Positions 4,893 through 44,046 of a stretch of DNA of 64,000 nucleotides are shown here, one piece after another. The position numbers and the translations under genes were made by a program. The notes beneath the pieces were generated by a model. The model worked only from the letters and a program-made list of their open reading frames with translations. It made no database searches and was not told the DNA's origin. The stretch lies in the NCBI GenBank assembly GCA_016699245.1, contig CP064968.1, forward strand, positions 835,042-899,041, in the 5' to 3' direction. Every line of letters begins with the position of its first letter. Position 1 is the stretch's first letter. This stretch comes from Candidatus Kaiserbacteria bacterium (lineage in GTDB: Bacteria; Patescibacteriota; Minisyncoccia; Phycocordibacterales; UBA918).

Positions 4893-4995
4893 TCATTGCG
4901 CATCACCAGGGAATCGGTCATTACATGACCAGTAAATCTTACAGATTCCGTTTAGGTTGTAGGAAATTTTGACAAATTTCGACAACCTTCAAAAA
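4893..4995 (-). repeat. Degenerate tRNA T-arm/acceptor-like fragment plus one copy of the nested-hairpin repeat family (other copies at 30527-30620 and 31713-31835)
   Basis: 'caccagggaatcggtcattacatg' resembles the tRNA-Arg/Lys 3' region. It is followed by 'aatcttacagattccgtttaggttgtagg...tcgacaacctt', shared with the 31.7 kb and 30.5 kb copies. Confidence 0.5.
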
Positions 4996-5304
4996 CGAAT
5001 CGTTTTTGCCTTGTGGGTATTTTGCTTCGTTATCACTCGCAAAATCCCTCGCAAGGTCTTCGATCCCTGGCCGCGAGCAAAACAAATTGCTCGCTTGGGC
5101 GGACTAATTTAAAAAACCACACGTGACTTCTGTTAAAGGGATTCTGTGTCTTCACAGATTACTAACTATAATTATTCACTTCGTTCTAATTCTAGTAAGT
5201 ATCTGCGAACCCGCCTCGCGGTTTTTCTTTTTTGAAAAAGAAAAACATCGCTGCGGCTCGGACAACTAAAAAACAGTGCGCAGGCACTGTTTTTCTTTAC
5301 GTTG

Positions 5305-5377
5305 TCCGCCCACCAGGGATCGAACCTGGGACCTTCTCCTTAAAAGGGAGCTGCTCTACCGGCTGAGCTATGGGCGG
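5305..5377 (-). tRNA. tRNA-Lys (anticodon TTT)
   Basis: Hand-folded cloverleaf. Acceptor CCGCCCA/TGGGCGG (C1:G72), D-stem GCTC/GAGC, anticodon loop CTTTTAA, T-arm CCAGG-TTCGATC-CCTGG, discriminator A. No encoded CCA. Confidence 0.75.
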
Positions 5378-5563
5378 AAAAGTGTGGGACACTTTTCCGG
5401 ACCTTTAGTGGAATTTTCGACCAAAGGGAGAAAATACCCTAAAGGTGTACAGCGCCTGTGTGGCGTTCTTGCGAACGATAAGGCGGATGGTTCTTACGGC
5501 TACTGAAATGAAAACGCGCATTTCTGCGCACAAAAACTATACCACAATCAGGAACCTTGTCTA

Positions 5564-10016: not shown

Positions 10017-10066
10017 CTTATTCTTCAAAGCAAGCATCAGACGCGTGAGAAAGTGCAGTGCACTTT

Positions 10067-22067: not shown

Positions 22068-22727
22068 ATGACAAATCTACATAGTGTTTCGAAATTTGAA
22101 AGGCCTCGTGAAAAATTGGCAAAATATGGTGTTGGAAAATTAACTAACACTGAACTCTTGGCGATATTGCTTCGAACTGGTACGAAAGAATTAAACGTAT
22201 TGAAGTTAGCTCAGGCAATTTTGCGCAAGTTCGAGGATACACAAATTGTTGATCTAACTATTGCAGATTTAAAATCAATTCACGGAATCGGTACGGTAAA
22301 AGCCTGTGAAATAATTGCTTGTTTTGAACTAGGGAAGAGAATGTTGAAAGATAAAAAGTCTACTTTGCTTTTAACCTCACAAGATGTTTGGGAACAAATG
22401 GCTGATATTCGTTCGAGTAAAAAAGAACATTTTGTGGTGTTCTATCTCGATACCAGAAATCAAGAAATCAAACGAGAAATTATTTCTGTAGGTACATTAA
22501 ACGAAAGCCTGGTACATCCTCGAGAAGTATTTGAGAGCGCTATTAAATACAATGCCGCCGCGATAATTGTGGCGCATAACCACCCATCGGGCAGTATTGA
22601 ACCGTCACAAGATGATATTGAAATCACAAAACGCCTGGTTCATGCGGGTAAAATACTCGATATCAGGGTTTTGAGTCATGTGATTGTGACAAATCAAATG
22701 CATGGTATTGTGGAGATAAATAACTAA
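22068..22727 (+). CDS. RadC-like JAB/MPN-domain protein (UPF0758)
   Basis: HhH N-terminus (LTNTELLAILLRTGTKE) and JAMM motif HNHPSGSIEPSQDD. Confidence 0.85.
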   Translation: MTNLHSVSKFERPREKLAKYGVGKLTNTELLAILLRTGTKELNVLKLAQAILRKFEDTQIVDLTIADLKSIHGIGTVKACEIIACFELGKRMLKDKKSTLLLTSQDVWEQMADIRSSKKEHFVVFYLDTRNQEIKREIISVGTLNESLVHPREVFESAIKYNAAAIIVAHNHPSGSIEPSQDDIEITKRLVHAGKILDIRVLSHVIVTNQMHGIVEINN

Positions 22728-22736
22728 CTTTAGTGT

Positions 22737-24182
22737 ATGGGGACCTATGAAACAAAAGAAAGTATTCTTGAACGAGCAGGTCTCGCTATTGATAAAAGCA
22801 TACGAGATTTTATTCCTGTCGAAGAATTGCCGATAATCGAAGCAAAGGTAGCAGAATTAAAAAACAAAGGCTATCTAGGTAACCTAGTAGAGTGGTTTGT
22901 GTTTGGTAAGAAAGCAGATTCACTCAGTCAAGCTGATTTCCATATTGCAGATATTGAGCTAAAAACTACGCCGATTAAGCATAGTACGAAGCATACGTAC
23001 GTTGCAAAAGAACGGCTCGTCTTTTCGATGATTGACTATCAAGCAATCCGATACGAAACTTGGGAGACAAGTTCATTTCTAAAAAAGAACAAGGTAATTT
23101 TACTGATGTTCTATTTATGGATGCAAAGCCAAACAGTTCTTGATTACAAATTCAAATTTGTGCATCTTCTCGATTTACTTGGCGATTTATCAGATGAGGA
23201 TGTTTTACAAATTCAGAAAGACTGGGAATTTATCGTCGCAAAAATTGGAAGGAATGAAGCGCATCTTTTATCTGAGGGTGATACGTATTATCTCGGTGCT
23301 TGTACAAAGGCGGCGAACAGCAGGGTAGTACGGGAGCAGTCGCCGGGTCATGTACCAGCAAAACCACGAGCATTTTCTCTAAAACAACAGTACATAAACT
23401 ACCTGATTCAAACAAAGTTATTACACCGAACTGTTGACGGTGATTCAATTTTCAAAAAGAGTAAAAAAGCCAAAACAGTTGAAGAAGCAGTAAACGCAAA
23501 GTTTGCTCCATATTTTGGTCAAACTGATACGGAGATTTTAAAGAAACTGGAAACAAATATCGGGAAAACCGCTAAGAGTTACAAACGTCTGGTTGTAAAT
23601 AAAATTCTTGGAGTTGATTCAGATAATATTCTGGAACTTGAAAAGGCTAATATAACTCTTCGCGTCATTACGCTTGAAAGCAATGGAACATTAAAGGAAT
23701 CAATTTCGTTTCCGGCTTTTGATTTTAAAGATTTGGTAACTCAGACATGGTATGACGATAAAGAAGAGGTAATGTCTGACTTTCATCTTCAGCTTGAAAC
23801 AAAGAAGTTTTTATTTGTTGTCTTCCAAAAGCAGGAAAATACTGATGATATAGTTTTAAGAAAAACAATGTTTTGGAATTTTCCAATGCAGGATATAGAT
23901 AAGGCTAAAGAAGTCTGGGAGATGACCATCACATTGATAAATGAAGGTAAAATTGTAAGAGAAATAAAGAAAAATAAGAGGGGTGAAGAAATAAGATATA
24001 CCCATTTCCCAGGCTCTTCATTTAACGGTGTTGCGCATGTAAGACCACACGGAAGTACACGAGAAGATATGATTGAATTGCCTGTTGCAGACGAGTTGAC
24101 GGGTATGAAAGAATACACAAAACAATGTTTTTGGTTGAATGCAAGTTATATACAACATGCAATTGAGAAAGATCAAGATTGA
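22737..24182 (+). CDS. Type II restriction endonuclease, Sau3AI/MutH-like (putative GATC specificity)
   Basis: 481 aa (R.Sau3AI is 489 aa). N-terminal MutH-like D...E-x-K motif ADFHIADIELKTTP and a second MutH-like half (DFHLQLETKKF). Immediately upstream of a C5 methyltransferase of M.Sau3AI-like size. Confidence 0.6.
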   Translation: MGTYETKESILERAGLAIDKSIRDFIPVEELPIIEAKVAELKNKGYLGNLVEWFVFGKKADSLSQADFHIADIELKTTPIKHSTKHTYVAKERLVFSMIDYQAIRYETWETSSFLKKNKVILLMFYLWMQSQTVLDYKFKFVHLLDLLGDLSDEDVLQIQKDWEFIVAKIGRNEAHLLSEGDTYYLGACTKAANSRVVREQSPGHVPAKPRAFSLKQQYINYLIQTKLLHRTVDGDSIFKKSKKAKTVEEAVNAKFAPYFGQTDTEILKKLETNIGKTAKSYKRLVVNKILGVDSDNILELEKANITLRVITLESNGTLKESISFPAFDFKDLVTQTWYDDKEEVMSDFHLQLETKKFLFVVFQKQENTDDIVLRKTMFWNFPMQDIDKAKEVWEMTITLINEGKIVREIKKNKRGEEIRYTHFPGSSFNGVAHVRPHGSTREDMIELPVADELTGMKEYTKQCFWLNASYIQHAIEKDQD

Positions 24183-24213
24183 TCATTCTTGTGTTGTTTG
24201 TTAAAATACCCCT

Positions 24214-25479
24214 ATGAAGAAAATTCGTGTTGTTGAGTTATTCGCTGGTGTTGGTGGTTTTCGTCTCGGCTTAGAGGGCTGTGAAGGCAATTCGAAACCG
24301 CATCATGATTTTTTTGAAACTGTCTGGTTTAATCAGTGGGAACCAGCTACTAAACGTCAGTATGCTCATGAAACCTACGTTTCTCGTTTTGGTGAAGCCA
24401 AACACAAACACGAATTCACTAATATCGATGTAGCGCAGGTTACTGATAAAGTCCCAGAGCACGATTTGCTTGTGGGAGGTTTTCCGTGTCAGGACTACTC
24501 GGTTGCAAAGAATCTATCAGCATCGAATGGTCTTGAAGGTAAAAAAGGAGTGCTGTGGTGGTCAATTTACGATATTTTGGTAAAGCAGGACGACAATGCC
24601 CCGCAGTATTTAATGTTAGAGAATGTTGATAGATTGATTAGCTCGCCAGCGAAGCAACGTGGACGTGATTTTGCAGTAATCCTCTCATGTTTAAATGGGC
24701 TCGGGTACACTGTGGAGTGGCGAATTGTAAATGCTGGGGAATATGGTTTTCCGCAACGCCGCCGCCGTATATTTATATTGGGGTATAAGAACGGTTCTGC
24801 TGTGCAAAAAAAGTTTGCCAAAGTTGGTAATGTGGAAAAATGGCTATGTGCATCAGGTCTTACACAAAAAGCTTTTCCAGGTACATCATTGACTGGATTC
24901 AAAACCTTTGAGATTAATCGTGACCCGGCTGAAGTATCAAAGTCATTTAATCTAGAAGACTCTAAAAATTCACCGTTTATGAATTCTGGTGTAGCAGATA
25001 ATTTTATTGTTACAACAATACGAATGTCTCCGATTTTTACGGGTAGGCAAATAGTTTTATCTGATATTCTTATTGATGAAAAGAAAGTGCCTGAAGAATA
25101 CTATATAGACAAAAAAGATTTGGAGAAATGGGTGTATTTGAAAGGTGGAAAAAACGAAAAGAGAAAAGCTAAAAATGGTTTTGAGTTTACGTATTCTGAA
25201 GGTCCGGTTGGTTTCCCTGATGCTCTTAATAAACCATCTCGTACAATTATTACAAGTGAAGGAGGCTCAACCCCATCCCGTTTTAAGCATGTTGTGAAAA
25301 CGAAAAGAGGTTTGCGGCGCCTAACCCCTATTGAACTAGAGAGACTTTGTATGTTTCCAGAAAATCATACCGAAGGAAATACTGATACTCGACGGGCTTT
25401 CTTCATGGGTAATGCGCTCGTAGTTGGTGTAATCGATAGATTAGGCGAAACGTTAATCAGGTTACATACTAAAAAGTAG
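24214..25479 (+). CDS. DNA (cytosine-5)-methyltransferase
   Basis: Motif I FAGVGGFRLGLE, motif IV GGFPCQDYSVAK, ENV motif, and a C-terminal target-recognition region. Confidence 0.9.
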   Translation: MKKIRVVELFAGVGGFRLGLEGCEGNSKPHHDFFETVWFNQWEPATKRQYAHETYVSRFGEAKHKHEFTNIDVAQVTDKVPEHDLLVGGFPCQDYSVAKNLSASNGLEGKKGVLWWSIYDILVKQDDNAPQYLMLENVDRLISSPAKQRGRDFAVILSCLNGLGYTVEWRIVNAGEYGFPQRRRRIFILGYKNGSAVQKKFAKVGNVEKWLCASGLTQKAFPGTSLTGFKTFEINRDPAEVSKSFNLEDSKNSPFMNSGVADNFIVTTIRMSPIFTGRQIVLSDILIDEKKVPEEYYIDKKDLEKWVYLKGGKNEKRKAKNGFEFTYSEGPVGFPDALNKPSRTIITSEGGSTPSRFKHVVKTKRGLRRLTPIELERLCMFPENHTEGNTDTRRAFFMGNALVVGVIDRLGETLIRLHTKK

Positions 25480-25542
25480 AACAAAATTTCATTTACCTGA
25501 TGATTTTCTTGAAATAAGATTCCTTAGGGAATATCTCTTAGA

Positions 25543-25603
25543 TGTATACTACACGCAGACAGAACGCAAAAATCTCCTACAAATGTAGGAGATTTTTGTA
25601 TTT
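25543..25603. repeat. 61-nt direct repeat, copy 2
   Basis: Same sequence as 21902-21962 with one substitution (A for G in the hairpin loop). Confidence 0.9.
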
Positions 25604-25616
25604 ATTCACTCGTTGT

Positions 25617-26321
25617 TTAAATATTTTTCAAAAATTTTTGTCTCTTGCTTTCTTCCATCCGTTCTATTGCGTAGCGTAAAGTAGTGCGAGGTAGGGAGTC
25701 GTAATATGAACGTAAAAACTCTTCGCACAACTGAGTATCTTTTTTCCACACTTCTCGGAGTGTCCAGCCGACAGCCTTCTGAGTCAGATCTTCTGTGTCA
25801 CTCAAAAGTCTCTGGGCAATTTTCAAAGAAGAGTCGAATTTTCCCTCTCGTATGAATGCCATAGTAGAAATAATAGCCACTCGGCGATACCACATATTCT
25901 CTGAGTCAGAGAGTTTGTCTAAGATACTTTCATCTATTATCCCGTTTAGAATTGCATGTCCTAAGATTTTGTACGTAGAGAGATCCACTAAGTCCCAGTT
26001 GTTTATCTGCGTTAGATTCCGGAGATAAAATTTGACTATCCTGAGACGATCCGTATTACTTTTTGCTCGTTCATATTGTGCGACCAAGATGAGGGCTCCC
26101 ACTAGCCTCTCCTCATGAATCGGTGAGTTCAATGCGTCTTGTACCTCAGACAAGGGTACATGTGCAAATTTTTTGACCACGGTACGTGCGTCGGGATTGC
26201 TGACCCCGATGAATTTGTCGCCCTCACCATACTGTCCCTTTCCCGTTTTGAAAAACCATTCATTCGTTTTCTTGCGCGAAGCACTCGCATATTTTTTCAG
26301 TTCTTTCAAAATGGCGCTCAT
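25617..26321 (-). CDS. DNA alkylation repair protein (AlkD-like HEAT-repeat glycosylase family)
   Basis: 234 aa all-helical protein with AlkD/AlkC family signature (WDLVD, WYRRVAIIS, QKAVGWTLRE). Confidence 0.7.
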   Translation of the reverse strand: MSAILKELKKYASASRKKTNEWFFKTGKGQYGEGDKFIGVSNPDARTVVKKFAHVPLSEVQDALNSPIHEERLVGALILVAQYERAKSNTDRLRIVKFYLRNLTQINNWDLVDLSTYKILGHAILNGIIDESILDKLSDSENMWYRRVAIISTMAFIREGKFDSSLKIAQRLLSDTEDLTQKAVGWTLREVWKKDTQLCEEFLRSYYDSLPRTTLRYAIERMEESKRQKFLKNI

Positions 26322-26701
26322 ATAGTTTTCTTTTCCTTTTTCTTCTTTTTCTTTGGCATAGGTAGGTGTGATGCAGTAATCTCTATGAGTTCAGAAAGCC
26401 ACTCTCTGTCATCTATATGGTCTTCATCAATTTTCATAGAGACTTTCGCACCGTTGTACGCATACCCCTCCTTATAATATTTCCCAACAAATTCTTTCCC
26501 CTCATCGGTAATTTTTACATACAGCGTATCATCACAGACTAAGCCAACAACTTTACCATCACAATACAACGCGTATTCCCCGAACATCTTTCGAGCAGAA
26601 ACATCCCCAGCCGAAGCCAGTTGATCTAAAATATAATCTATCGTTGCTTGTTTTGTTGCCATACGTATTTCGTTTACTCCAGTTATGTGCAAGAGGTCCA
26701 A
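26318..26701 (-). CDS. TfoX N-terminal domain protein
   Basis: MFGEYALYCDGKVVGLVCDDTLYVK matches the TfoX_N core. C-terminal poly-Lys tail. Confidence 0.65.
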   Translation of the reverse strand: MDLLHITGVNEIRMATKQATIDYILDQLASAGDVSARKMFGEYALYCDGKVVGLVCDDTLYVKITDEGKEFVGKYYKEGYAYNGAKVSMKIDEDHIDDREWLSELIEITASHLPMPKKKKKKEKKTI

Positions 26702-30052: not shown

Positions 30053-30481
30053 ATGAAGTTTAATTTTAAAACACAACTGAAACAGCGAATTCGCTCGTTT
30101 GAAGAGGAGAAAGATTCTCACGAATATATGCATCCACAGAGGGATTGGATGTTAATTTTAGGAAGCGCTGTGTTTGTATTTTTAGGAGGTGTAACGTACA
30201 GCGCTTTTGATTTTTATACGCAGTTTGTGATGCCTCCTGAGCCGTCACTTGTTGAAGATAAAGTGGTTCGGTATCGTGATACCGCGATTCTTGAAGTTGC
30301 GAAATTATACGATGATAGAGAACAACTGTTTACAACACTCAGAGCCGATAAGCCACCCGTCTCCGTGCCCATTGAGGTGCCTGCCACCACTACTGCCGAA
30401 ATAAAGATTGAAGAGGCCCCACCACTTGCAGAGGAGGGTACTCCTCTGTACACTGAAACCGCTCCGACCCTGTCCCCATAG
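30053..30481 (+). CDS. Hypothetical membrane-anchored protein, possibly a PilP-like pilus component
   Basis: Transmembrane helix plus Pro/Thr-rich C-terminus; 1-nt gap from the previous gene. Confidence 0.35.
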   Translation: MKFNFKTQLKQRIRSFEEEKDSHEYMHPQRDWMLILGSAVFVFLGGVTYSAFDFYTQFVMPPEPSLVEDKVVRYRDTAILEVAKLYDDREQLFTTLRADKPPVSVPIEVPATTTAEIKIEEAPPLAEEGTPLYTETAPTLSP

Positions 30482-30483
30482 TT

Positions 30484-30526
30484 CAATGGATAGAACTGCG
30501 GACTTCTAAGCCGTTATTCGAGGCTA
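30484..30526 (+). pseudogene. Partial duplicate of tRNA-Arg(TCT): D-arm through 5' T-stem, no acceptor stem
   Basis: 'tagttcaatggatagaactgcggacttctaagccgttattcgagg' matches tRNA-Arg(TCT) at 30664-30707 (2 mismatches in the D-loop). The upstream sequence cannot pair as an acceptor stem. Confidence 0.7.
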
Positions 30527-30620
30527 AACAGTCTGGGAGACTGTTTAGGAGGTTGTCGACAGTTTCGACCAAAGGAAGAAACTGTCATACAACCTGAACA
30601 GTTCATGTAATGAAAGATTC
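30527..30620 (+). repeat. Nested-hairpin repeat family, copy in + orientation (AGGTTGT-C-GACAGTTTC...GAAACTGTC-AT-ACAACCT)
   Basis: Two concentric perfect inverted repeats read from the sequence. Related copies at 4930-4995 and 31713-31835 on the opposite strand. Confidence 0.7.
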
Positions 30621-30655
30621 CGTAAAGGAATAGAACATAGTACGATACAATATTG

Positions 30656-30728
30656 CCTCGGTAGTTAAATGGATATAACTGCGGACTTCTAAGCCGTTAT
30701 TCGAGGTTCGATTCCTCGCCGAGGCACA
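30656..30728 (+). tRNA. tRNA-Arg (anticodon TCT)
   Basis: Acceptor GCCTCGG/CCGAGGC, anticodon loop CTTCTAA (stem has one 31:39 mismatch), T-arm CGAGG-TTCGATT-CCTCG, discriminator A. Confidence 0.7.
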
Positions 30729-31388: not shown

Positions 31389-31712
31389 GGTTGGATTGTA
31401 AATATGGTTTCGTGGTCACAAGTTGCTAATTGATTTTTTTCGCTTCGGAACTTACACACAAATAGAATTTCTTGGTCTCCTTTTTCATTATGAAAGAAAA
31501 AGGAGACAGACTCAGAAAATATAGTCGCTACCGCTCGTTATTTTCTGGTCACCCCGCCTCGGCCATTTTTATTTCTACGAAGGAAATAAAAATATGCCTG
31601 CGACTCGCACAAAGGCACGAAAGCAAAGCAGTTTGCTTTCTAAATCAAATACCCACCCATTTTAAAATGGGTGGGTATTTGATTTACCTTTGTGCGCGAT
31701 AAGAGACTTGAA

Positions 31713-31835
31713 TCTTACAGATTCTGTTCAGGTTGCACCACAAGAGTATTTCATTTTTCTAATTCGTAAACTCATAAGAAAAATTGGTCATATGACACTT
31801 TCTTCCGTTGGTCGAAATTGTCGACAACCTTTTTA
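31713..31835 (-). repeat. Nested-hairpin repeat family copy (with a 55-nt internal insertion) at the left end of the integrative element
   Basis: Reverse complement reads aggttgtcgacaatttcgaccaacggaagaaagtgtcata...caacctgaacagaatctgtaag. About 90% identical to 30541-30605 outside the insertion. Confidence 0.7.
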
Positions 31836-32078
31836 AGTCTCTGGCTTAAAAACTAAATACCCCCAGAAAAAATCTGGGGGTATTTAGTTTTGTGCACCAA
31901 GTATCACCCCAATTGAACTTTTTGATTGTATTGTTGATGAGTATGATTTATTTGTTGCCTGGAACGTTGAAATGCGTAATTTCTTCGCCATTGAAAGAAT
32001 CGAGGAAGAGACATCGGTAACGTATTGAGCTTGTCTGATATGAATAAAATGGTCTTTTGATACATTAGGGTAATTCTA

Positions 32079-32300
32079 TTGAACTTTGGTACTATTATCA
32101 TAATGAAACCCGACAAGAAAAAAGACGCACTGACTGACGTTGTAGATATTGCAACTTCACCTGCAAGCAATAATTCGGACTCGAATTTGAGCGAAGGGCA
32201 AACAGTTGCTTCGTCAGGCGAGGTTATTACTTTAGGTTTTGAAAATCAGATTGATAAGTTGGCCCGTGATTTAGTAAGTAAAGCAAGAAAGAAGAAGTAA
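32079..32300 (+). CDS. Small hypothetical protein (element cargo)
   Basis: 73-aa ORF followed by a hairpin caccctt...aagggtg. No similarity recognised. Confidence 0.3.
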   Translation: MNFGTIIIMKPDKKKDALTDVVDIATSPASNNSDSNLSEGQTVASSGEVITLGFENQIDKLARDLVSKARKKK

Positions 32301-32368
32301 TTTTATATAAAAAAGCCACCCTTCCGCCGAAACGAAAGGGTGTACTTTCAGTTTCGTCGTGGGTGGCG

Positions 32369-32947
32369 TCAGCGTACGGGTGGATAGACCAGGACTCGGT
32401 CTTGCAATGAGACAGACCCAGCTGAAAGAACGAATCCCATCACGCCACGTTTGTTCTGTGCTTCACGAATGAATCTGGTCTTGAGCCCTTCAATGCCGTG
32501 ATGGGCTTCGAGCCGTTCACCCACAGTTCGACATGGACCATTTTCTTCCCAGACTGCCAGAATGGCTTGCGTGACGTTGCCGTCTGCCATATGTGCAGGG
32601 AAGACAAGTCGTGTGCCAGGTTCCAGCTTGGAAAAGTTGGGGATGCCCGAAATCGTGATGTTTTCGAGTAGGCAACCGAGAGGAATGTCGTGGCCAAGAG
32701 CTTGCTCAACCTCAGTCATTTCCTCCAAGGACAAGCCAGTCCAGCTTCGCCAATTGAACACCTGGGACCCTTTCATCAATCCCGAAGTTCTGATGTAGTC
32801 GCCGTCATGTCCGCTCAAACGGCGGTCGAAACCAGCGTGGTTGTCGCCGATTGGGCCGTCAAGTTCAAACTTGATATTCAGAACTCGTTCACCGTTGATT
32901 GCCAACGAGCTTACGAGTCCAGTAGCGATTGGATTGATATTTGGCAC
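32369..32947 (-). CDS. MOSC-domain protein (YiiM/YcbX-like)
   Basis: ENITISGIPNFSKLEPGTRLVF...GPCRTV matches the MOSC beta-barrel core including the conserved Cys. Confidence 0.65.
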   Translation of the reverse strand: MPNINPIATGLVSSLAINGERVLNIKFELDGPIGDNHAGFDRRLSGHDGDYIRTSGLMKGSQVFNWRSWTGLSLEEMTEVEQALGHDIPLGCLLENITISGIPNFSKLEPGTRLVFPAHMADGNVTQAILAVWEENGPCRTVGERLEAHHGIEGLKTRFIREAQNKRGVMGFVLSAGSVSLQDRVLVYPPVR

Positions 32948-32957
32948 GGGACACCTC

Positions 32958-33587
32958 CTATTGGCGTGCTGTCAGAAGAGCATTGTCTGCTACTTCTGCC
33001 ATGGTTTCGTAGAAAGGAAATTGCTTTCCTGTGGCTTCACTCAACTCGAACAGAATGACATCGAGTCCATGGAAACGACGGTCACCGCCGACCACAATGC
33101 GTGCGTCCATCATTTCGGCGTAAGCAGTGAATTTGCCAATCTCACGCCGAGTATCCATGGCATACGGTTCAGGCCCTGGATGTGGGTGTGTGGAGCTTTC
33201 AAGGCCGAGCCAGAAGATGACACAGCCAGGCACGTTCGCCTCAAGACCAGCTTGTTTGAGGTAGTGGCGTTCCCACACCAGTTGTCGATTATCTGCCTTC
33301 GAGAACGGCTGGTGGAAGTGTTTTGCCAACCGATGCTCGTCATTCCACCGCGATGGGCAAGCAATGAGAGCGGAAGGTTCACGACTGATGATGTGTTCGA
33401 CCATACTTGACTGCCAATCGTCACCACCGCGAATCGGTCCTGCCAAGAAAAGCAGGGGTGATTCATTCGTTGGTGAAAGTGGCACGATTTGTTTCGGTAC
33501 GTAAATGGTCATCGGTTCTTCTCCTATCAATGAGCTGTGAATGGGGGAACTTATAGGACTTTCAAGGTCCTGAAGCTGGTCGCACAA
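32958..33587 (-). CDS. Nucleoside 2-deoxyribosyltransferase-fold protein, DNPH1/Rcl-like (2'-deoxynucleoside 5'-phosphate N-hydrolase-like)
   Basis: PLLFLAGPIRGGDDW resembles the DNPH1 'YFCGSIRGG' nucleotide-binding loop. Acidic residues lie downstream. 11-nt gap to the MOSC gene on the same strand. Confidence 0.5.
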   Translation of the reverse strand: MCDQLQDLESPISSPIHSSLIGEEPMTIYVPKQIVPLSPTNESPLLFLAGPIRGGDDWQSSMVEHIISREPSALIACPSRWNDEHRLAKHFHQPFSKADNRQLVWERHYLKQAGLEANVPGCVIFWLGLESSTHPHPGPEPYAMDTRREIGKFTAYAEMMDARIVVGGDRRFHGLDVILFELSEATGKQFPFYETMAEVADNALLTARQ

Positions 33588-33614
33588 TATAATGAAAATG
33601 GCAGTTTGTAAAGT

Positions 33615-34907
33615 GTGGGACTCCTGTATAATACAGCTAATATGGCAAAAAACATTACAGGCGAATATGTTTCAAAAAATCTTTCAGCTAAAGAGGTTTA
33701 CGGCTATAAAGACGAACACAATGAGGTTTCAGTTGAAATTGTAAAAGAGGTATACAAAAAGAAACATCTCATCGTTCACTACCCGTACAATAAAACAAAT
33801 GGCAGTCCTGCTTATAAGTTTGTGCGTGGGATACATTACATCGGATTCTCTCCAGACGATATAAATGGTGTAAAAAAAGCAAAAAATAGAGGATATGGAT
33901 TTACCAAAGATACAAGCGCACTCATTTATTTTCTTGAACAGGATTATCCAACCATCAATCAAATCTGGATTACTAAAGATGGAGAATCCGAATATCAAAA
34001 ACAGAAAGGGATTCTGATACTCAATAAAGATGATTTTTACAATTTGTATCTTTCTATAAAACCAGAAAATGACCGACATTCCAAAGAGCGAAACAATCTC
34101 GCAAAAGATTTCTTGGCCAGCACGCTTCCAAAATTGTTTGATAAAAGTAAATATGAATATGTAAAAGGGGAACTCCATTCACTTCTCCAAAAAATAAAAA
34201 CTCACAATGGAAAATTGTCTGATTCTGACCTGAAGTCATTATCTTCGGCTATTGAAGAAGGGCTGTTTGACGTCAGTCAACGGGTGCTGATAGATACTAA
34301 AAAAGGCATCGATAAGATTTATATTGAAACAGTTTTGGAAGAATTTGATAAATTGTCTGGGCAGACAGGCGAAACAAAAACATTAGAGAAAAAATGGCAG
34401 GACTTTTTCAAGAAACATAGCTGGATATTCAGTTTTGTTTTTGCGCATCCAGTCGTATTTCTCCAAAAGGAGATGTATGTGGGTGGTATGAAAATGAGTG
34501 GCAAAGGTGCTACTTATGCAGATTTTGTATATAAGAACAAGCTTACAAAAAACACTGCCGTTGTAGAAATAAAAACACATGCATCCATACTTATGAGCGC
34601 ATCTCCTTACAGGAAAGGTGCTGACATCTATTCAATTCAAAGTGGTTTGTCAGGAGCAATTGTACAGGTTTCGGACCAAAAGGATAAGATATTGAAAAAT
34701 TACAGCCACCTTGGAGTTTCAGAACCCTTCAACCCCAAATGTATAGTTATTGCAGGTTCAACGACTGAATTCAAAGGTAAGGGAGCAAAACGTAAGATAG
34801 CAAGCTTTGAGCTTTTTCGAAGTTCGTTGAGTGGTGTTGAGATTGTGACTTTCGATGAAATAAAAGAAAAGATACTGCTTCTAAAAACACAGATTGAATT
34901 GAATTAG
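33615..34907 (+). CDS. Shedu-like (DUF4263) PD-(D/E)xK nuclease-domain protein; candidate anti-phage defence gene
   Basis: C-terminal region has the DUF4263 hallmarks: EKKWQDFFKKHSWIFSFVF, then D...E-x-K (ATYADFVY...TAVVEIKTH) and IVIAGSTTEF...VEIVTFDEI. About 430 aa, as for SduA. Confidence 0.6.
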   Translation: MGLLYNTANMAKNITGEYVSKNLSAKEVYGYKDEHNEVSVEIVKEVYKKKHLIVHYPYNKTNGSPAYKFVRGIHYIGFSPDDINGVKKAKNRGYGFTKDTSALIYFLEQDYPTINQIWITKDGESEYQKQKGILILNKDDFYNLYLSIKPENDRHSKERNNLAKDFLASTLPKLFDKSKYEYVKGELHSLLQKIKTHNGKLSDSDLKSLSSAIEEGLFDVSQRVLIDTKKGIDKIYIETVLEEFDKLSGQTGETKTLEKKWQDFFKKHSWIFSFVFAHPVVFLQKEMYVGGMKMSGKGATYADFVYKNKLTKNTAVVEIKTHASILMSASPYRKGADIYSIQSGLSGAIVQVSDQKDKILKNYSHLGVSEPFNPKCIVIAGSTTEFKGKGAKRKIASFELFRSSLSGVEIVTFDEIKEKILLLKTQIELN

Positions 34908-34911
34908 CTTA

Positions 34912-35079
34912 CTTGCTAACAAGTGATAACAAGGGTTCCTCGCTGGTATCAGCCGAGAACAGCCAAGAGTTTGCCTGAAAACAGGCAATAACAGGTGCTC
35001 GTTTCTTTTGTTGCTAACAACAAATAGCAACAAAACCCTTTTAGCTGAAATTCCTCACTATTAGTACTACAATGGGGTA
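34912..35079. promoter_or_regulatory. Iteron-like TAACAA-containing repeats upstream of the serine recombinase gene
   Basis: ttgctaacaagtgataacaagg, gcaataacagg, ttgctaacaacaaatagcaacaaaac: repeated and partly palindromic 'ttgctaacaa' units read from the sequence. Confidence 0.4.
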
Positions 35080-36714
35080 ATGCAAGAAATCAAGACAACG
35101 GCAGACCTGAAGAATGTCTTCAGTAGTAAGTTCAATAACGATAAGTCAGAAAATCAGGAAGAGTTTTACCGTTACGCAATTTACGTCCGCAAATCGACTG
35201 ATACTGAAGATAAGCAAGAGCGGTCCCTTGGTGACCAATTAGCTGATTGTGAAGAGTTGGTCCTTCGCCACTCACTTCGTGTCGTAAAAGTGATACAGGA
35301 GTCGATGTCAGCCAAGGAGCCAGATATTCGACCAAAGTATCGTGAGATGATGAACGACCTTCAGGCGGGTAAGTATGATGGCATCATTGCGTGGCACCCA
35401 AACCGACTGTCACGAAATATGCGTGAAGCGGGTGAAATTATCGACCTGCTCGATAAGAACATCATCAAGGACCTCAAATTTGTTTCTTACACGCACACAA
35501 ACGATGCCAGCGGTAAAATGTTGCTTGGTATTACTTTTGTAATGTCGAAGCAATTTTCGGACAATTTGAGCGACAGCGTTACGCGGGGTAACCGAAGAAG
35601 TATTGAAGAGGGAAAGTACATCAACAAAGCCAAGCATGGATATAAAAAAGACCGTAATGGCTATTTACGGCCAGATGGCAAAAATTTTACTTTAGTTACC
35701 GAAGCGTTCCAGTTGCGGTTGCAGGGTAAAACAATTGATGAGATTGCGACTTTCCTCAATAAAAATGGATACTCACGCCAAAACTCTATATCAGGGAAGA
35801 GTTACACGGCCCACATGCAAAAAGCTATGGCAGGGAAGTTTATGAGGGACCCTGTTTATACAGGTGTGATGGTGTATGGAGAGACAGTGGTGGACCTGAC
35901 AGAAGTATATGATTTTGTGCCAGCTGTCAGTGTTGAAGATTTCATGAAAATAAATCGTCTGGAAAAGAATTCAGACATAATAAAGTTAGCAAAATCATTC
36001 AAGCGAACTGGTGGGGTGAAAGCAGACCTGCTTCGAGGAAAGGTTTTGTGTGCAGGATGTGGCGAACAGCGCATGGCTGGTATTACTACCAAAGAATTGA
36101 AGAGTGAAGCGAAGAACTATTTTTATTACCGTTGTGATACTGAAGGGTGTCCGTTTGAGAATAAATCTACCCGTGCCAAAGTGATACTTGATTTTGTTAT
36201 GGATTACTTCAAGAAGAGGCCGTTCTCAAACGTAGATGCGTACCAGCACTATAAAGTGGAAATGGTTCGCGTGATGAATCAACGCCTCAAAGAGAAGCAG
36301 GACCTTCTTCGTGTGAAGAAATCAGAATTGGCAAAACTACAAAGTCGTATAGTCGACCTGAAGTCCGCGATGGTTTTAGAAAAGGATGAAGAGGTAAAAG
36401 GTTACCAAAAAGAAGATTTTCAGAAGACGACTGACAGGGTAGTGGTTGTAAATGCTGAATTTGAAAAGTTAGAGAAGCAAATCGAAGCAGTGAAGGGCAC
36501 CCCGATGACTTATCAGGAATTCCTTGAACTTTTTGATAATATGGCTTCAATACTGAAGAAAACTACTAAAATGAGTGATTTGGACACCTTACTGCAAAAG
36601 TTCTTCTTGAACTTTACTATAAACAAAAAATCCGTTGAGGAATATACCCTCAACGAACCTTTTGCTTCACTTGAATCTATTGAAACATCAAATGTTTCTC
36701 TTGGTGCGCGATAA
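35080..36714 (+). CDS. Large serine recombinase (resolvase/invertase N-terminal catalytic domain plus recombinase and zinc-ribbon domains)
   Basis: YAIYVRKSTDTEDKQERSLGDQ (catalytic Ser), ...DGIIAWHPNRLSRN..., a central recombinase domain, Cys cluster CAGCG...CDTEGC, and a C-terminal coiled coil. 544 aa. Confidence 0.85.
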   Translation: MQEIKTTADLKNVFSSKFNNDKSENQEEFYRYAIYVRKSTDTEDKQERSLGDQLADCEELVLRHSLRVVKVIQESMSAKEPDIRPKYREMMNDLQAGKYDGIIAWHPNRLSRNMREAGEIIDLLDKNIIKDLKFVSYTHTNDASGKMLLGITFVMSKQFSDNLSDSVTRGNRRSIEEGKYINKAKHGYKKDRNGYLRPDGKNFTLVTEAFQLRLQGKTIDEIATFLNKNGYSRQNSISGKSYTAHMQKAMAGKFMRDPVYTGVMVYGETVVDLTEVYDFVPAVSVEDFMKINRLEKNSDIIKLAKSFKRTGGVKADLLRGKVLCAGCGEQRMAGITTKELKSEAKNYFYYRCDTEGCPFENKSTRAKVILDFVMDYFKKRPFSNVDAYQHYKVEMVRVMNQRLKEKQDLLRVKKSELAKLQSRIVDLKSAMVLEKDEEVKGYQKEDFQKTTDRVVVVNAEFEKLEKQIEAVKGTPMTYQEFLELFDNMASILKKTTKMSDLDTLLQKFFLNFTINKKSVEEYTLNEPFASLESIETSNVSLGAR

Positions 36715-36787
36715 GAGACTTGAACTCCTGACCTTCTCGGTGTAAACGAGCTGCTCTACCAACTGAGCTAATCGCGCATGTGTTTAT
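36712..36787 (-). tRNA. tRNA-Val (anticodon TAC), encoded CCA
   Basis: Acceptor GCGCGAT/ATCGCGC, anticodon loop TTTACAC, T-loop TTCAAGT, discriminator A, CCA present. Its 3' end is the right-hand att repeat. Confidence 0.8.
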
Positions 36788-39439: not shown

Positions 39440-40108
39440 ATGGGATTACGAGGCCCAAAACCAAAAGGAAAAGTACACATCGAGTGATCATCCGATTTTG
39501 CGTATGCAATAGGCTTGCTGGTATCTGATGGAAATTTATCACCAGATGGACGCCATATTATTTTTACATCTAAGGATATTGAACTCATTATTCTTTTCCA
39601 AAAAGCACTCGACATTGAGGGGAATATCGGAAGGAAATCAAGTGGAACGATGAAGGAGAAAAAGTATTTTGTGGTGCAGTTTAGCGACGTGCTCTTCTAT
39701 ACGTTTCTAGTGAGTATTGGACTAATGTCCAATAAATCAAAAGTTATAGGTGAAATAGCCATCCCAGAAAAATATTTTTTTAACTTCTTGCTCGGCTCAT
39801 TTGATGGCGATGGTTGCACGTACTCATATTTTGACCCTCGATGGAAGTCTAGTTTTATGTTCTACACCGTGTTTGTTTCTGCAAGCAAAGAACACATACT
39901 TTGGATTCAAAGAGAAGTTTTCAGTCGCTTAGGTATTAAAGGTCATATTACAGGTGGCACTAAAAAACAGTGTTTCCAACTTAAATATGCGAAAGCAGAT
40001 TCGTTATTGTTGTTGAGAGCAATGTATACAAGTATTGATACCCCTTGTCTTATGCGAAAACGCTTGAAAATAGAAGAAATGTTGAGTACAATTGCCGAAC
40101 GTCTTTAG
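39440..40108 (+). pseudogene. LAGLIDADG homing endonuclease (two-motif, single-chain) interrupted by an in-frame TGA at 39485-39487
   Basis: Motif 1 DFAYAIGLLVSDGNL and motif 2 FLLGSFDGDGC are in one frame with ATG 39440 (MGLRGPKPKGKVHIE-TGA-SSDFAYAIG...). The ORF track restarts at TTG 39515. Confidence 0.65.
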
Positions 40109-41755: not shown

Positions 41756-41797
41756 CAGACATCTAAAAAACTCCTTCGGGAGTTTTTTAGATGTCTG
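41756..41797 (+). terminator. 42-nt perfect palindrome (terminator) directly after tRNA-His
   Basis: cagacatctaaaaaactccttcgggagttttttagatgtctg. Confidence 0.75.
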
Positions 41798-42028
41798 GGC
41801 GGCTAAGGAAGCAAAAGGCTTTGCTTCCGTCCGGGAATCGAAGAGTCTGAATATATCGCAATGAGCCCTCTGGGCGAAATGAGATATGAAGACTGTACCG
41901 TTCATGTAATGAAAGATTACCCCGGTAGCCGCCCTAAAGAGAAAAGAATCAAATCATCTACGTTGGGTCTTGCAGAGTGGAAAAAACCAATGTATTATAA
42001 TAAAGTATTAAAAAGTAATACTAATTTT

Positions 42029-42241
42029 ATGACTACAATCTCTGTGCCACTTAATGCTGAAGCTGAAAAAGCGCTTAAAGAGCTTACCGAAATTACTGGT
42101 GTAAACCGTGTTGCGGTAATCAGGAAGGCAATCAAACATTATCGTGAGGAGGAGGCAATCAATGCGGTACTCAGAGCCGAACAGGAAGTGTCTGAAGGGA
42201 AGTTGCTTCGTGGTGCTCCACGAAAAATTTTGCTTTCATAG
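42029..42241 (+). CDS. Ribbon-helix-helix-type antitoxin (type II toxin-antitoxin)
   Basis: About 70 aa (MTTISVPLNAEAEKALKELTEITGVNRVAVIRKAIKHY...). Start taken at an internal Met of ORF 41861..42241. Its stop overlaps the start of the RelE-like gene. Confidence 0.55.
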   Translation: MTTISVPLNAEAEKALKELTEITGVNRVAVIRKAIKHYREEEAINAVLRAEQEVSEGKLLRGAPRKILLS

Positions 42242-42504
42242 TGTATATGAATATTGCATATACACCGCAGTTTGTAAGAATGTTTCGAAGACTTGAGCAT
42301 GCCCTCAAAGAAGAGGCTATTGAAAAAATTGAACTGTTTACAGAAGATCCTACACATTCGCAACTCAAGGCACATAAGCTCAAAGGAAAATTAAAGAACC
42401 GATACAGCTTCTCAGTGAACTACCAGATTCGAATTATTTATACGCCTATTTCAAAAAACGAGGTCGCGCTTCTTGCAATCGGTGATCACGATGTATATAA
42501 ATAG
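42241..42504 (+). CDS. RelE/ParE-family toxin
   Basis: KAHKLKGKLKNRYSFSVNYQIRIIYTPISKNEVALLAIGDHD matches the RelE/ParE fold. Confidence 0.7.
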   Translation: MYMNIAYTPQFVRMFRRLEHALKEEAIEKIELFTEDPTHSQLKAHKLKGKLKNRYSFSVNYQIRIIYTPISKNEVALLAIGDHDVYK

Positions 42505-42807
42505 TGAACAGTAGGGTGGGGTAATTCACGCAAGCTCCACCTGAAACTCTGGAATATAGATACTCGTATCGCCCAATCTCTCAAACACAGTTCTTACCAC
42601 AAGAGTATTTCCGAAATTATAGTCGAGTAAGACTCTCCTTAATTTCTAGGTCAACATCTCTATACAGAGACTGTTCAGGCGTTCGAAATGCCCCCAGCAT
42701 TTCTCACCTCCAACGAGTTGGCAACCTCTTGCAGAACGGGTCCCATCCTATTTTTCACTCTACGACGTCTCAGCATACTAAATGCCTTATAAGACGTTGG
42801 GCTTTAA

Positions 42808-43502: not shown

Positions 43503-43784
43503 ATGAATACGCATACTATTTTAAATATAAAAACAGATAAAAAGCTTAAAGCGGACGCACAAAAAGTGGCAAGCGAACTGGGTGTTCCCCTCAGTACAGT
43601 CATGAATGCTTTTTTGAAGCAGTTTGTTCGTGATAAGGAAATCACTCTTTCAGCTAATCAATATCGTCCAACACCGTACCTCGAAAGTATTCTCGAACAA
43701 GCACAAAAAGAATATGAAGCAGGTGATTTTATTGGGCCATTTAAAACAGGAGAAGAATTTATAGCCCATCTAAAGTCTCTCTAG
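43503..43784 (+). CDS. RelB/DinJ-family antitoxin
   Basis: ILNIKTDKKLKADAQKVASELGVPLSTVMNAFLKQFV matches the DinJ N-terminal RHH domain. Confidence 0.75.
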   Translation: MNTHTILNIKTDKKLKADAQKVASELGVPLSTVMNAFLKQFVRDKEITLSANQYRPTPYLESILEQAQKEYEAGDFIGPFKTGEEFIAHLKSL

Positions 43785-43785
43785 T

Positions 43786-44046
43786 ATGCAATACATTCTT
43801 TCGAAACAGTTTGAGAAAGATTTCTCAAAACTTCCGAATGCCACTAAAAAGAAAACTGTTGTTACTCTGGAAAAATTTACAGTGAACCCTCAGAATCCAA
43901 CCCTTCGCAACCATGGACTATTAGGGAAATGGAAAGACCACTTTAGTATCAACGTGACCGGCGATACAAGAGCCATATATTTTGTGATTGAAAAAGATGT
44001 TGTGAGATTTGTAGCGATTGGTTCACATAGTGAGTTGTATGAGTAA
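43786..44046 (+). CDS. YafQ/RelE-family toxin (mRNA interferase)
   Basis: 86 aa; PTLRNHGLLGKWKDHFSINVTGDTRAIYFVIEKDVVRFVAIGSH; 1-nt gap from the antitoxin. Confidence 0.75.
   Translation: MQYILSKQFEKDFSKLPNATKKKTVVTLEKFTVNPQNPTLRNHGLLGKWKDHFSINVTGDTRAIYFVIEKDVVRFVAIGSHSELYE

Follow-up and report, generated by a model that had tools for sequence, protein, structure and literature searches.

Repetitive extragenic palindromic (REP) sequences and bacterial interspersed mosaic elements, with their REP-associated tyrosine transposases (RAYT), as well as the palindrome elements of the IS200/IS605 insertion sequence (IS) family, are recognised as a folded single strand in which a hairpin lies beside short target-pairing bases, and for one enzyme gene there are far more non-autonomous copies. 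IS200/IS605 elements are not known to duplicate their target, and their pairing stretch measures 4-5 nt. Folded single-strand sites or T-shaped hairpins are also formed by integron attC, CTX phage attP and the parvovirus inverted terminal repeat (ITR). The bridge and seek RNAs of IS110/IS1111 elements exist as stand-alone guide copies too, for instance ssr9 of ISPpu9 (PMC12288879; also PMC12045711). In TIGR-Tas stem arrays large loops hold dual spacers and a tas gene is adjacent (PMC12045711), and tandem serine-recombinase islands have been described at ssrA in Dehalococcoides (PMC3146451). Here we describe a short structured repeat, hereafter the module, from a 64-kb stretch of the genome of a Candidatus Kaiserbacteria bacterium, which belongs to the candidate phyla radiation (CPR) or Patescibacteria. 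The whole stretch is called the window below; an earlier note had picked out of it three copies of a nested-hairpin repeat next to tRNA fragments.

We think it probable, if with some reserve, that we are dealing with an insertion module directed at tRNA loops in Patescibacteria, non-autonomous and dependent on its structure. The three copies had been placed correctly, and the family in the window is larger: short-word BLAST, motif scans and a covariance model identified nine related loci, and every copy save a truncated one adjoins a tRNA gene or tRNA fragment. The 20-mer AGGTTGTCGACAGTTTCGAC of the 5' arm matches at 30550-30569 (+) and 31811-31830 (-), and the 22-mer tail ACAACCTGAACAG..TGTAA at 30589-30610 (+), 31715-31736 (-) and 4939-4960 (-), with no match of either in 100 shuffles. 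A metagenome pattern scan keyed on the outer stem of the alpha subfamily matched at least 120 loci; 75 canonical modules are among the matches listed and the remaining matches are chance occurrences inside open reading frames (ORFs). CPR metagenome contigs carry the module widely, with an invariant joiner and GTA loop. Rfam 15 at gathering thresholds matches only tRNAs in the window and related loci and holds no family for the module, and permissive scans of the same sequences yielded only terminator-like chance matches. Exact-sequence, keyword and topic searching of the literature found no description. The module family of CPR bacteria is large and seemingly undescribed.

The anatomy was read on the strand where the adjoining tRNA piece is in sense. 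A unit begins with an optional hairpin P0 or with the 5' strand of a stem P1 and continues with the nested hairpin P2, a joiner, the hairpin P3 and the target sequence. P0 is a hairpin of the form GGTGA-stem-YGGGR loop-stem-GCAAG; in some units its place is taken by the P1 5' strand, which is an inverted copy of the tRNA T-loop and T-stem. P2 has an outer stem of 6-7 bp, a small internal loop of merely 1-2 nt, an inner stem rich in A/T and an apex that varies and often reads GA-CC-RAA-GG-RA. The joiner is GAAC or GTAC followed by WG, and P3 is a stem of 5-6 bp with a GTA loop, found in 71 of the 75 canonical modules listed. The module measures about 65-130 nt and units overall 65-220 nt. Three subfamilies can be told apart by P2: alpha (AGGTTG..CAACCT, joiner GAAC), beta (ACCTTG..CAAGGT, joiner GTAC) and gamma, which has a 17-bp inverted repeat, CACCACAAGAGTACTTC. 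Neither P2 nor P3 is an intrinsic terminator: they are followed by joiner or tRNA sequence with no T run, and separate terminator hairpins adjoin.

Copies were selected for the alignment by their P3 pairing, and the search pattern dictated the alpha outer stem; only the P2 inner stem and the comparison between alpha and beta are therefore unbiased. The outer stems of alpha (AGGTTG/CAACCT) and beta (ACCTTG/CAAGGT) are mutually compensatory. Across 62 aligned copies 94.5% of the P2 inner stem is paired, and five of its pairs are changed on both sides; its covariation score is 0.343, whereas shuffles score 0.096 and slid controls no more than 0.09. A structure with covariation, which the earlier note had set against its own interpretation, is hence present in the P2 inner stem; it does not decide between folded DNA and RNA.

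Among the 75 listed metagenome copies 32 (43%) lie within 500 nt of a tRNA, usually at 50-110 nt, where about 17% is expected from the tRNA density of those loci, and 25 of these 32 have the orientation of the tRNA. Together with the window loci this bears out the earlier idea of a dispersed family tied to tRNA genes and fragments. At least 19 tRNA species are flanked by the module, at several positions within the tRNAs: it sits most often in the T-loop, but also in the D-arm, at the anticodon-arm boundary and in the variable region, and 5' ends of protein genes are occasional sites. In 28 of 69 copies the module is flanked by direct repeats of 14-97 nt that stand clearly above the shuffled controls and follow two geometries. 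Class D units lie downstream of an intact tRNA and show, in order, the tRNA 3' part, a terminator, an inverted tRNA piece, P2, P3 and the tRNA 3' part again, with the second repeat beginning 2-6 nt inside the P3 3' strand. In class U the first repeat abuts P0, and P3 is followed by a linker of 9-107 nt and the start of the intact gene; among the targets are tRNA positions 1-11, 1-24, 9-46 and 1-53 as well as protein-gene 5' ends. In the cases read base by base the duplication spans from the insertion point to the gene end, so one gene copy is intact and the orphan copy is a "tRNA fragment". Direct repeats of tRNA 3' ends flank the units of tRNA-Val (21/21 nt), tRNA-Arg(GCG) (22 nt), tRNA-His and tRNA-Gly and also metagenome class D copies; tRNA 3'-end repeats within 200 nt co-occur with the module (18/38 versus 8/92).

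In the T-loop class the last bases of the P3 3' strand are the first bases of the target. Since the P1 strand is an inverted T-loop/T-stem copy and P3 shares these bases, the element carries bases complementary to the first 10-15 nt of its target, and a three- or four-way junction is a possible fold of the whole unit. For the tRNA-Arg(GCG) copies a three-way junction is predicted, which the inverted T-arm closes by pairing with the T-loop of the fragment. In 13 of 66 copies the 16 nt ahead of P2 are complementary to the 3' flank over 7 nt or more, whereas shuffling the partners gives 1.2. Native tRNA terminators include an inverted copy of the tRNA end in only 11 of 130 cases, which links this inverted copy to the element. 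The three-way junction was also set by eye against the cores of the hammerhead and other small ribozymes; these were rejected, as the joiners do not fit.

The loci in the window and the tRNA pieces next to them are the following, with covariance model scores in bits.
30524-30614 (+): copy 1, alpha type, 74.2 bits; P0 30524-30548, P2 nested hairpin 30550-30595, joiner GAACAG 30596-30601, P3 TTCAT-GTA-ATGAA 30602-30614 (+)
30472-30525 (+): orphan 5' part (positions 1-53) of tRNA-Arg(TCT), acceptor strand GTCCCCA, abutting copy 1
30655-30727 (+): intact tRNA-Arg(TCT), located 40 nt downstream of copy 1, whose acceptor stem differs (GCCTCGG)
31692-31842 (-): copy 2, class D mini-element of tRNA-Val, 26.9 + 23.8 bits; inverted T-loop piece AGAGACTT 31835-31842, P2 31730-31830 including a gamma-type insertion of ~55 nt, joiner 31725-31729, P3 31710-31724, tRNA-Val 3' fragment 31692-31712
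4897-5104 (-): copy 3 locus, beta class D element of tRNA-Lys whose joiner holds a nested alpha module, 60.3 bits; inverted acceptor 5096-5104, small hairpin, inverted T-arm 5058-5070, P2-beta 5009-5057, inserted hairpin and P2-alpha 4948-4988, P3a 4935-4947, P3b 4916-4930, Lys-like 3' fragment 4897-4915
5378-5465 (+): module abutting the 5' end of tRNA-Lys (5304-5377, -) on the opposite strand, 19.1 bits; P0, P2 ACCTTTAG..CTAAAGGT with apex GACCAAAGGGAG 5401-5446, joiner GTACAG, P3 with GTG loop 5453-5465
10045-10234 (+): tRNA-Gly element, found by BLAST, motif scans and covariance model; P0 10045-10069, gamma long inverted repeat CACCACAAGAGTACTTC 10067-10083 / 10172-10188 instead of P2, joiner ..GTACAG, P3 10201-10213, tRNA-Gly-like 3' fragment 10214-10234
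13792-13889 (-): beta class D module with tRNA-Arg(GCG) 3' fragment, 25.0 bits; inverted T-arm GGGATCGAAG, P2 ACCTTGCC..GACAAGG, joiner TGTACT, P3 13810-13824
13613-13711 (-): second of the two tandem modules, at a distance of 179 nt, 24.6 bits; same architecture with different stems, P3 13631-13645, tRNA-Arg(GCG) 3' fragment
13963-13985 (-): orphan tRNA 3' fragment GGTTCGATTCCTACTGGGGGCAC, Arg(TCT)-like, with terminator, at the head of the tandem array
41757-41934 (+): tRNA-His class D mini-element; terminator palindrome, inverted acceptor 41796-41805, small hairpin 41806-41828, inverted T-arm 41829-41843, P2 41844-41894, joiner GTACCG, P3 41901-41913, tRNA-His 3' fragment 41914-41934
42656-42709 (-): truncated module without P2, 20.4 bits; P0, GCCTGAACAG, P3 TCTCT-GTA-TAGAGA

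The two concentric inverted repeats reported before, of 7 and 9 bp, are perfect in copy 1, which folds (30550-30614) with z = -7.3 relative to shuffles; DNA folds of the copy 3 locus and the tRNA-His element have z = -6.0 and z = -14.3, and 13792-13889 folds as a three-way junction with z = -4.1. Alignment confirms the insertion of about 55 nt in copy 2. The tRNA-Val repeat beside this copy is real as well, with an exact extent of 21 nt, 31692-31712 being identical to 36704-36724 (21/21 nt). The tRNA piece beside copy 1 had been taken for a 3' piece and is actually the 5' part of tRNA-Arg(TCT); it matches the tRNA model weakly (22 bits), and tRNA positions 8-54 are repeated. The arrangement of the 5378-5465 module at tRNA-Lys is seen likewise at the loci L242, L139 and L206.

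The acceptor stem of the intact tRNA-Arg(TCT) gene is self-consistent yet unlike that of the orphan 5' piece, which begins with GTCCCCA as do the tRNA-Arg genes of the relatives. The Arg(TCT)-like 3' fragment (13963-13985, -) lies 16.5 kb from the orphan 5' piece on the other strand and has a matching downstream flank, for which the flank of tRNA-Arg in L128 served as comparison, and the orientation of tRNA-Arg is opposite in all relatives. Such a pattern points to an inversion or a replacement that had its breakpoint in the T-loop. As for the gamma repeat CACCACAAGAGTACTTC, it is located at 10067-10083, 10172-10188, 31737-31753 and 42596-42611 and in some units interrupts P2 or takes its place. 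In L182 it lies in the anticodon loop of a pseudo-tRNA-Gln.

The nine window loci were compared with relatives, referred to by locus identifiers (L001, L004, L128 etc.). With filters off, four syntenic relatives (80 kb, 11 tRNAs including the same tRNA-Arg, tRNA-Val and tRNA-Leu) have no copy, and the fifth, L128, gave four matches in the covariance model search as compared to the nine loci of the window. L128 alone has an insertion of about 215 nt in the leader of the orthologous tRNA-Val, upstream of the intact gene, that consists of tRNA positions 1-11, P0-P2-P3 and tRNA positions 27-41. Pseudo-tRNAs interrupted by one or two modules sit directly upstream of intact copies. Modules form tandem arrays at the tRNA-Arg(GCG) locus of the window and in L057, and an alpha module is nested inside the joiner of the beta tRNA-Lys element (copy 3). 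L057, from a metagenome-assembled genome labelled Saccharibacteria, has tandem units after tRNA-Val(GAC), with a P2 about 90% identical to that of copy 1 and compensatory inner-stem changes. Among the matches listed it is the only true homolog from a scan of genome contigs with the apex 19-mer. IMG/VR viral contigs have no true module, six chance matches lying inside ORFs; the module is not phage-borne.

The apex 19-mer, TTTCGACCRAMGGRAGAAA, is also the core of an unrelated and very widespread inverted-repeat element, GTCATTTCGACCGAAGGGAGAAATC...GATTTCTC..TCGAAATGAC (L007-L126; e.g. L035 1985-2076, L107 2649-3695), which occurs, sometimes in arrays, in Flavobacterium, Desulfobacterales, Ignavibacteria, Riflebacteria, Anaerolineae and others and is absent from Rfam. 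Its CCGAAGG is reminiscent of a very stable GAA mini-hairpin.

Proteins encoded near the modules were analysed for a candidate enzyme. Clustering of 343 ORFs within 4 kb of modules produced no recurrent protein family, and phmmer with the serine recombinase of the window did not find it as a recurrent neighbour. The 20 nearest ORFs are, by Pfam, housekeeping genes save one short serine recombinase. The module is therefore considered non-autonomous, given that no neighbouring protein family recurs and the nearest ORFs are housekeeping. No parent element with a recombinase and homologous ends was found among the loci examined. A Y1/HUH transposase was seen neither in the window (translations read, Pfam on selected ORFs) nor near 83 metagenome loci, and no DEDD/Nop-domain protein was found near the latter.

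The module appears to behave as a parasitic insertion element mobilised by an enzyme from elsewhere. It would land in tRNA loops or at the edges of tRNA genes, occasionally at 5' ends of protein genes, and insertion would bracket it with a direct duplication of the target while one gene copy stays intact. A folded single-stranded intermediate, DNA or RNA, would be recognised; the P3 and P1 5' strands may choose the target by pairing with its first 10-15 bases, and a trans-acting enzyme encoded elsewhere in the genome would do the chemistry. The target duplications could come from duplication at a staggered cut, from a target piece carried by the element, or from template switching.

Several points weigh against an insertion module. 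The neighbourhoods of the 83 metagenome loci and the window, which is 64 kb of a 1.05-Mb genome, yielded no enzyme for it. No flanking repeat rises above control in 41 of the 69 copies, and repeat lengths vary widely (14-97 nt). No filled-site/empty-site pair was found in near-identical genomes to fix the exact ends of the element or the origin of the duplications. G:T versus A:C mismatches number 13 versus 7 and do not reveal the folding strand, so the module fits a DNA hairpin or an RNA alike. The selection for P3 pairing and the pattern-fixed alpha outer stem confine the unbiased covariation evidence to the P2 inner stem and the alpha/beta comparison. Finally, the conserved fold, joiner and loop as well as the co-orientation with tRNAs would equally fit a functional RNA.

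A bolder proposal, to which we would give a low probability, makes the module the recognition scaffold of a base-pair-guided, programmable insertion system with an unlinked enzyme and a folded single-stranded DNA or RNA intermediate, or else a retroposon resembling short interspersed nuclear elements (SINE-like). The P3 and P1 5' strands would serve as guides by pairing with the opening 10-15 nt of the target, for instance the tRNA T-loop or D-arm, and the insertion chemistry itself would make the long target duplications. The system might be a new guided recombinase or of the HUH type; alternatively, in a bacterial SINE-like retroposon, the 3' hairpin would anneal to the nicked target.

In order of weight, the alternatives to an insertion module are a tRNA-linked structured RNA, an att arm or decayed island, and non-mobile fold-back products. 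The first, which we judge unlikely, holds that the module is transcribed with or beside tRNA genes and acts in cis or trans on tRNA expression, its P0/P1-P2-P3 fold, cloverleaf-like and in some units with an acceptor-like helix, serving tRNA precursor processing, termination, insulation or another RNA function. A covarying P2 inner stem, an invariant joiner and loop, and 25 of the 32 tRNA-adjacent listed copies on the tRNA strand are in keeping with such a role. Copies stand between promoter and tRNA or just past the tRNA terminator, and the inverted tRNA piece, which pairs with the tRNA 3' end or the downstream fragment, has the logic of alternative pairing. The absence of the module from four syntenic relatives with the same tRNAs is hard to reconcile with this, as are the multiple copies per genome, some of them nested or truncated, and those inside dead pseudo-tRNAs and at protein-gene 5' ends. 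Moreover, in class D a terminator stands between tRNA and module, and Rfam has no match.

The second alternative, the view of the earlier note, would make the module an att arm or decayed remnant of tRNA-targeting integrase islands, similar to cis-mobilizable elements (CIMEs): short copies left after deletion of an island and possibly still mobilised in trans by large serine recombinases. The window has such an island of about 4.8 kb in the tRNA-Val T-loop, at about 31.9-36.7 kb (31892-36777), with tRNA-Val at 36702-36777 (-) and a cargo that includes a Shedu gene and a MOSC gene. Two of its features matter here.
35080-36714 (+): large serine recombinase (Pfam Resolvase + Recombinase + Zn_ribbon_recom)
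31892-31929 (-): distal junction ACAATCAAAAAGTTCAAT with a degenerate tRNA 3' end, from alignment with L001 and L004

This junction is homologous to those of L001 and L004, both without the module. Copy 2 ends at 31842 and the junction starts at 31892, about 50 nt away; as it starts beyond the island junction, copy 2 is a separate mini-element between the degenerate and the perfect tRNA-Val 3' ends. The module is not an att arm of the neighbouring serine-recombinase island, and the recombinase is outside the repeat family. Direct repeats of tRNA 3' ends up to the gene end are nevertheless the classic signature of an integrase. Mini-elements are in tandem with serine-recombinase islands at tRNA-Val (window, L128) and beside one at tRNA-Pro (L253), in L161 a short serine recombinase lies ~800 nt from a module, and the repeat copies of tRNA-Gly and tRNA-Arg(TCT) differ like alleles, unlike random decay. 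Against this, the module flanks at least 19 tRNA species at several tRNA positions, which is incompatible with a single sequence-specific recombinase. The copies are compact units of constant architecture instead of the heterogeneous remnants expected of deletion, which also speaks against the idea that most copies are decayed islands; no recombinase recurs near modules, and viral contigs of IMG/VR lack the module. We regard an att-arm origin as improbable, more so than a structured RNA.

The island itself deserves some remarks. Its recombinase matches without difference a protein encoded on a 1.05-Mb contig of Candidatus Kaiserbacteria. The enzyme is 72-99% identical at the same tRNA-Val in relatives (L001, L004, L006, L127, L128) while the cargo is swapped, the defence genes being Shedu in the window, a CBASS (cyclic-oligonucleotide-based antiphage signalling system) with SMODS and S_4TM in L128, an Mrr-like gene in L004 and a methylase with HATPase in L006. 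The 3' end of the recombinase gene overlaps the tRNA 3' end which it restores. In L253 (11640-12010) a 52%-identical recombinase keeps the tRNA-Val 3' end GTTCAAGTCTCTCAGCGCGCACCA beside its stop codon; it adjoins a tRNA-Pro and a class D module, and no tRNA-Val 5' part is present there. A small conserved ORF, 31897-32028 (+) in the window and 3537-3662 in L001, crosses the distal junction (49% amino acid identity, ..ELFDCIV.E.DL.V.WN..VTY), with its start codon in the flank in L001; possibly it encodes an excision factor, or it is a gene that circularisation puts together.

Other features near tRNA genes and modules of the window include two YafQ/RelE-type toxin-antitoxin pairs, 41861-42504 and 43503-44046, after the tRNA-His mini-element, with the truncated module 42656-42709 between them. 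A 4-kb integrase-free segment (13990-17938) between tRNA-Arg(GCG) and its 3' fragments codes for a GNAT acetyltransferase, a C39 peptidase, an arginase-family protein and a ThiF-like protein. A free-standing LAGLIDADG-type ORF (39515-40108, +; Pfam LAGLIDADG_3, 23 bits) lies directly upstream of tRNA-Leu(GAG). Downstream of tRNA-Ser, a low-GC segment (22068-26701) has RadC, a MutH/Sau3AI-like endonuclease, a C5 cytosine methylase, a DNA alkylation repair protein and TfoX_N; a tRNA-Ser repeat was not seen.

The third alternative, that the module is not mobile and that template switching at tRNA terminators makes the palindromes and duplications, with the shared sequence due to common descent or hairpin convergence, is very improbable: the forward-reverse-forward order of tRNA end, terminator, inverted tRNA end, module and tRNA end resembles fold-back products, and the palindrome of ~40 bp at tRNA-His resembles fold-back synthesis, but near-identical P2 outer stems, joiner and loop at unrelated loci across many metagenomes, compensatory changes between subfamilies, nested modules and the insertion polymorphism at tRNA-Val in L128 all contradict it.

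CPR genomes are tiny (~1 Mb), yet these 64 kb hold nine copies of one structured repeat. If mobile, the module would be a so far unnoticed driver of rearrangement and of the build-up of islands at tRNA genes across a major section of the bacterial tree, and it would account for "tRNA fragments" that software for finding islands would mistake for integrase scars. The pairing between element and target suggests a rule of target choice that is readable from sequence and makes the search for the enzyme, which could be a new guided recombinase, concrete. If it is an RNA instead, it would represent a new tRNA-linked RNA class. Either outcome is testable with existing metagenomes and metatranscriptomes.

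When compared with known systems, the module lacks a defining feature of each kind for which membership was tested. The earlier likening to transposable elements of the miniature inverted-repeat kind (MITEs) stands in part. Like the MITE-like repeats Correia/NEMIS, RUP, BOX, ERIC and the Rickettsia palindromic elements, the module is small, non-coding, multi-copy (9 loci in 64 kb; 75 canonical metagenome modules listed) and hairpin-forming, without a gene of its own, patchy among relatives and found in nested and tandem copies; the tRNA-Val polymorphism in L128 also looks mobile-like. Unlike them it has no shared terminal inverted repeats, its conserved inverted repeats being internal and the start of P0 and end of P3 not mutually inverted, and no target-site duplication of fixed length. 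It differs from them further in its tRNA-gene targets, in its long and variable target duplications and in internal hairpins conserved as structure. The neighbourhoods of the metagenome loci contained no IS.

The module resembles REP/RAYT and IS200/IS605 elements in its conserved hairpin beside target-pairing bases, in its many non-autonomous copies and in the folded single strand that would be recognised. The contrast lies in that a Y1/HUH transposase was seen neither in the window nor near the 83 loci and in a paired stretch of 10-15 nt instead of 4-5 nt, and the target repeats argue against simple IS200/IS605 membership. IS110/IS1111 RNAs and the module are both structured and non-coding with segments complementary to an adjacent target, and IS110/IS1111 guides can sit apart from the recombinase gene. 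On the other hand, the 83 loci lack a nearby DEDD recombinase, bridge RNAs hold their guides in internal loops whereas the P2 loop has 1-2 nt, and IS110 does not duplicate 14-97 nt of target. A TIGR-Tas stem array was considered and rejected, as the description of such arrays (PMC12045711) differs.

Att-flanked elements without integrase (CIMEs and pseudo-staphylococcal cassette chromosome elements) and the Dehalococcoides ssrA islands share with the module direct repeats of the 3' ends of tRNA or tmRNA genes and tandem accretion by a recombinase island, and mobilisation in trans is possible in the former as in the module. In contrast to them the module is not homologous to island ends, uses many tRNA species and positions, and has a constant size (130-220 nt) and architecture. 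The order of a module unit, with an inverted target copy, two small hairpins and a direct target copy, corresponds to the A-B-B'-C-C'-A' topology of attC, CTX attP and the parvovirus ITR. Neither an integron integrase nor an Xer context or Rep protein accompanies the module, and its outer arm is host tRNA sequence; as in those sites, structure is conserved over sequence, which in the module applies to P3.

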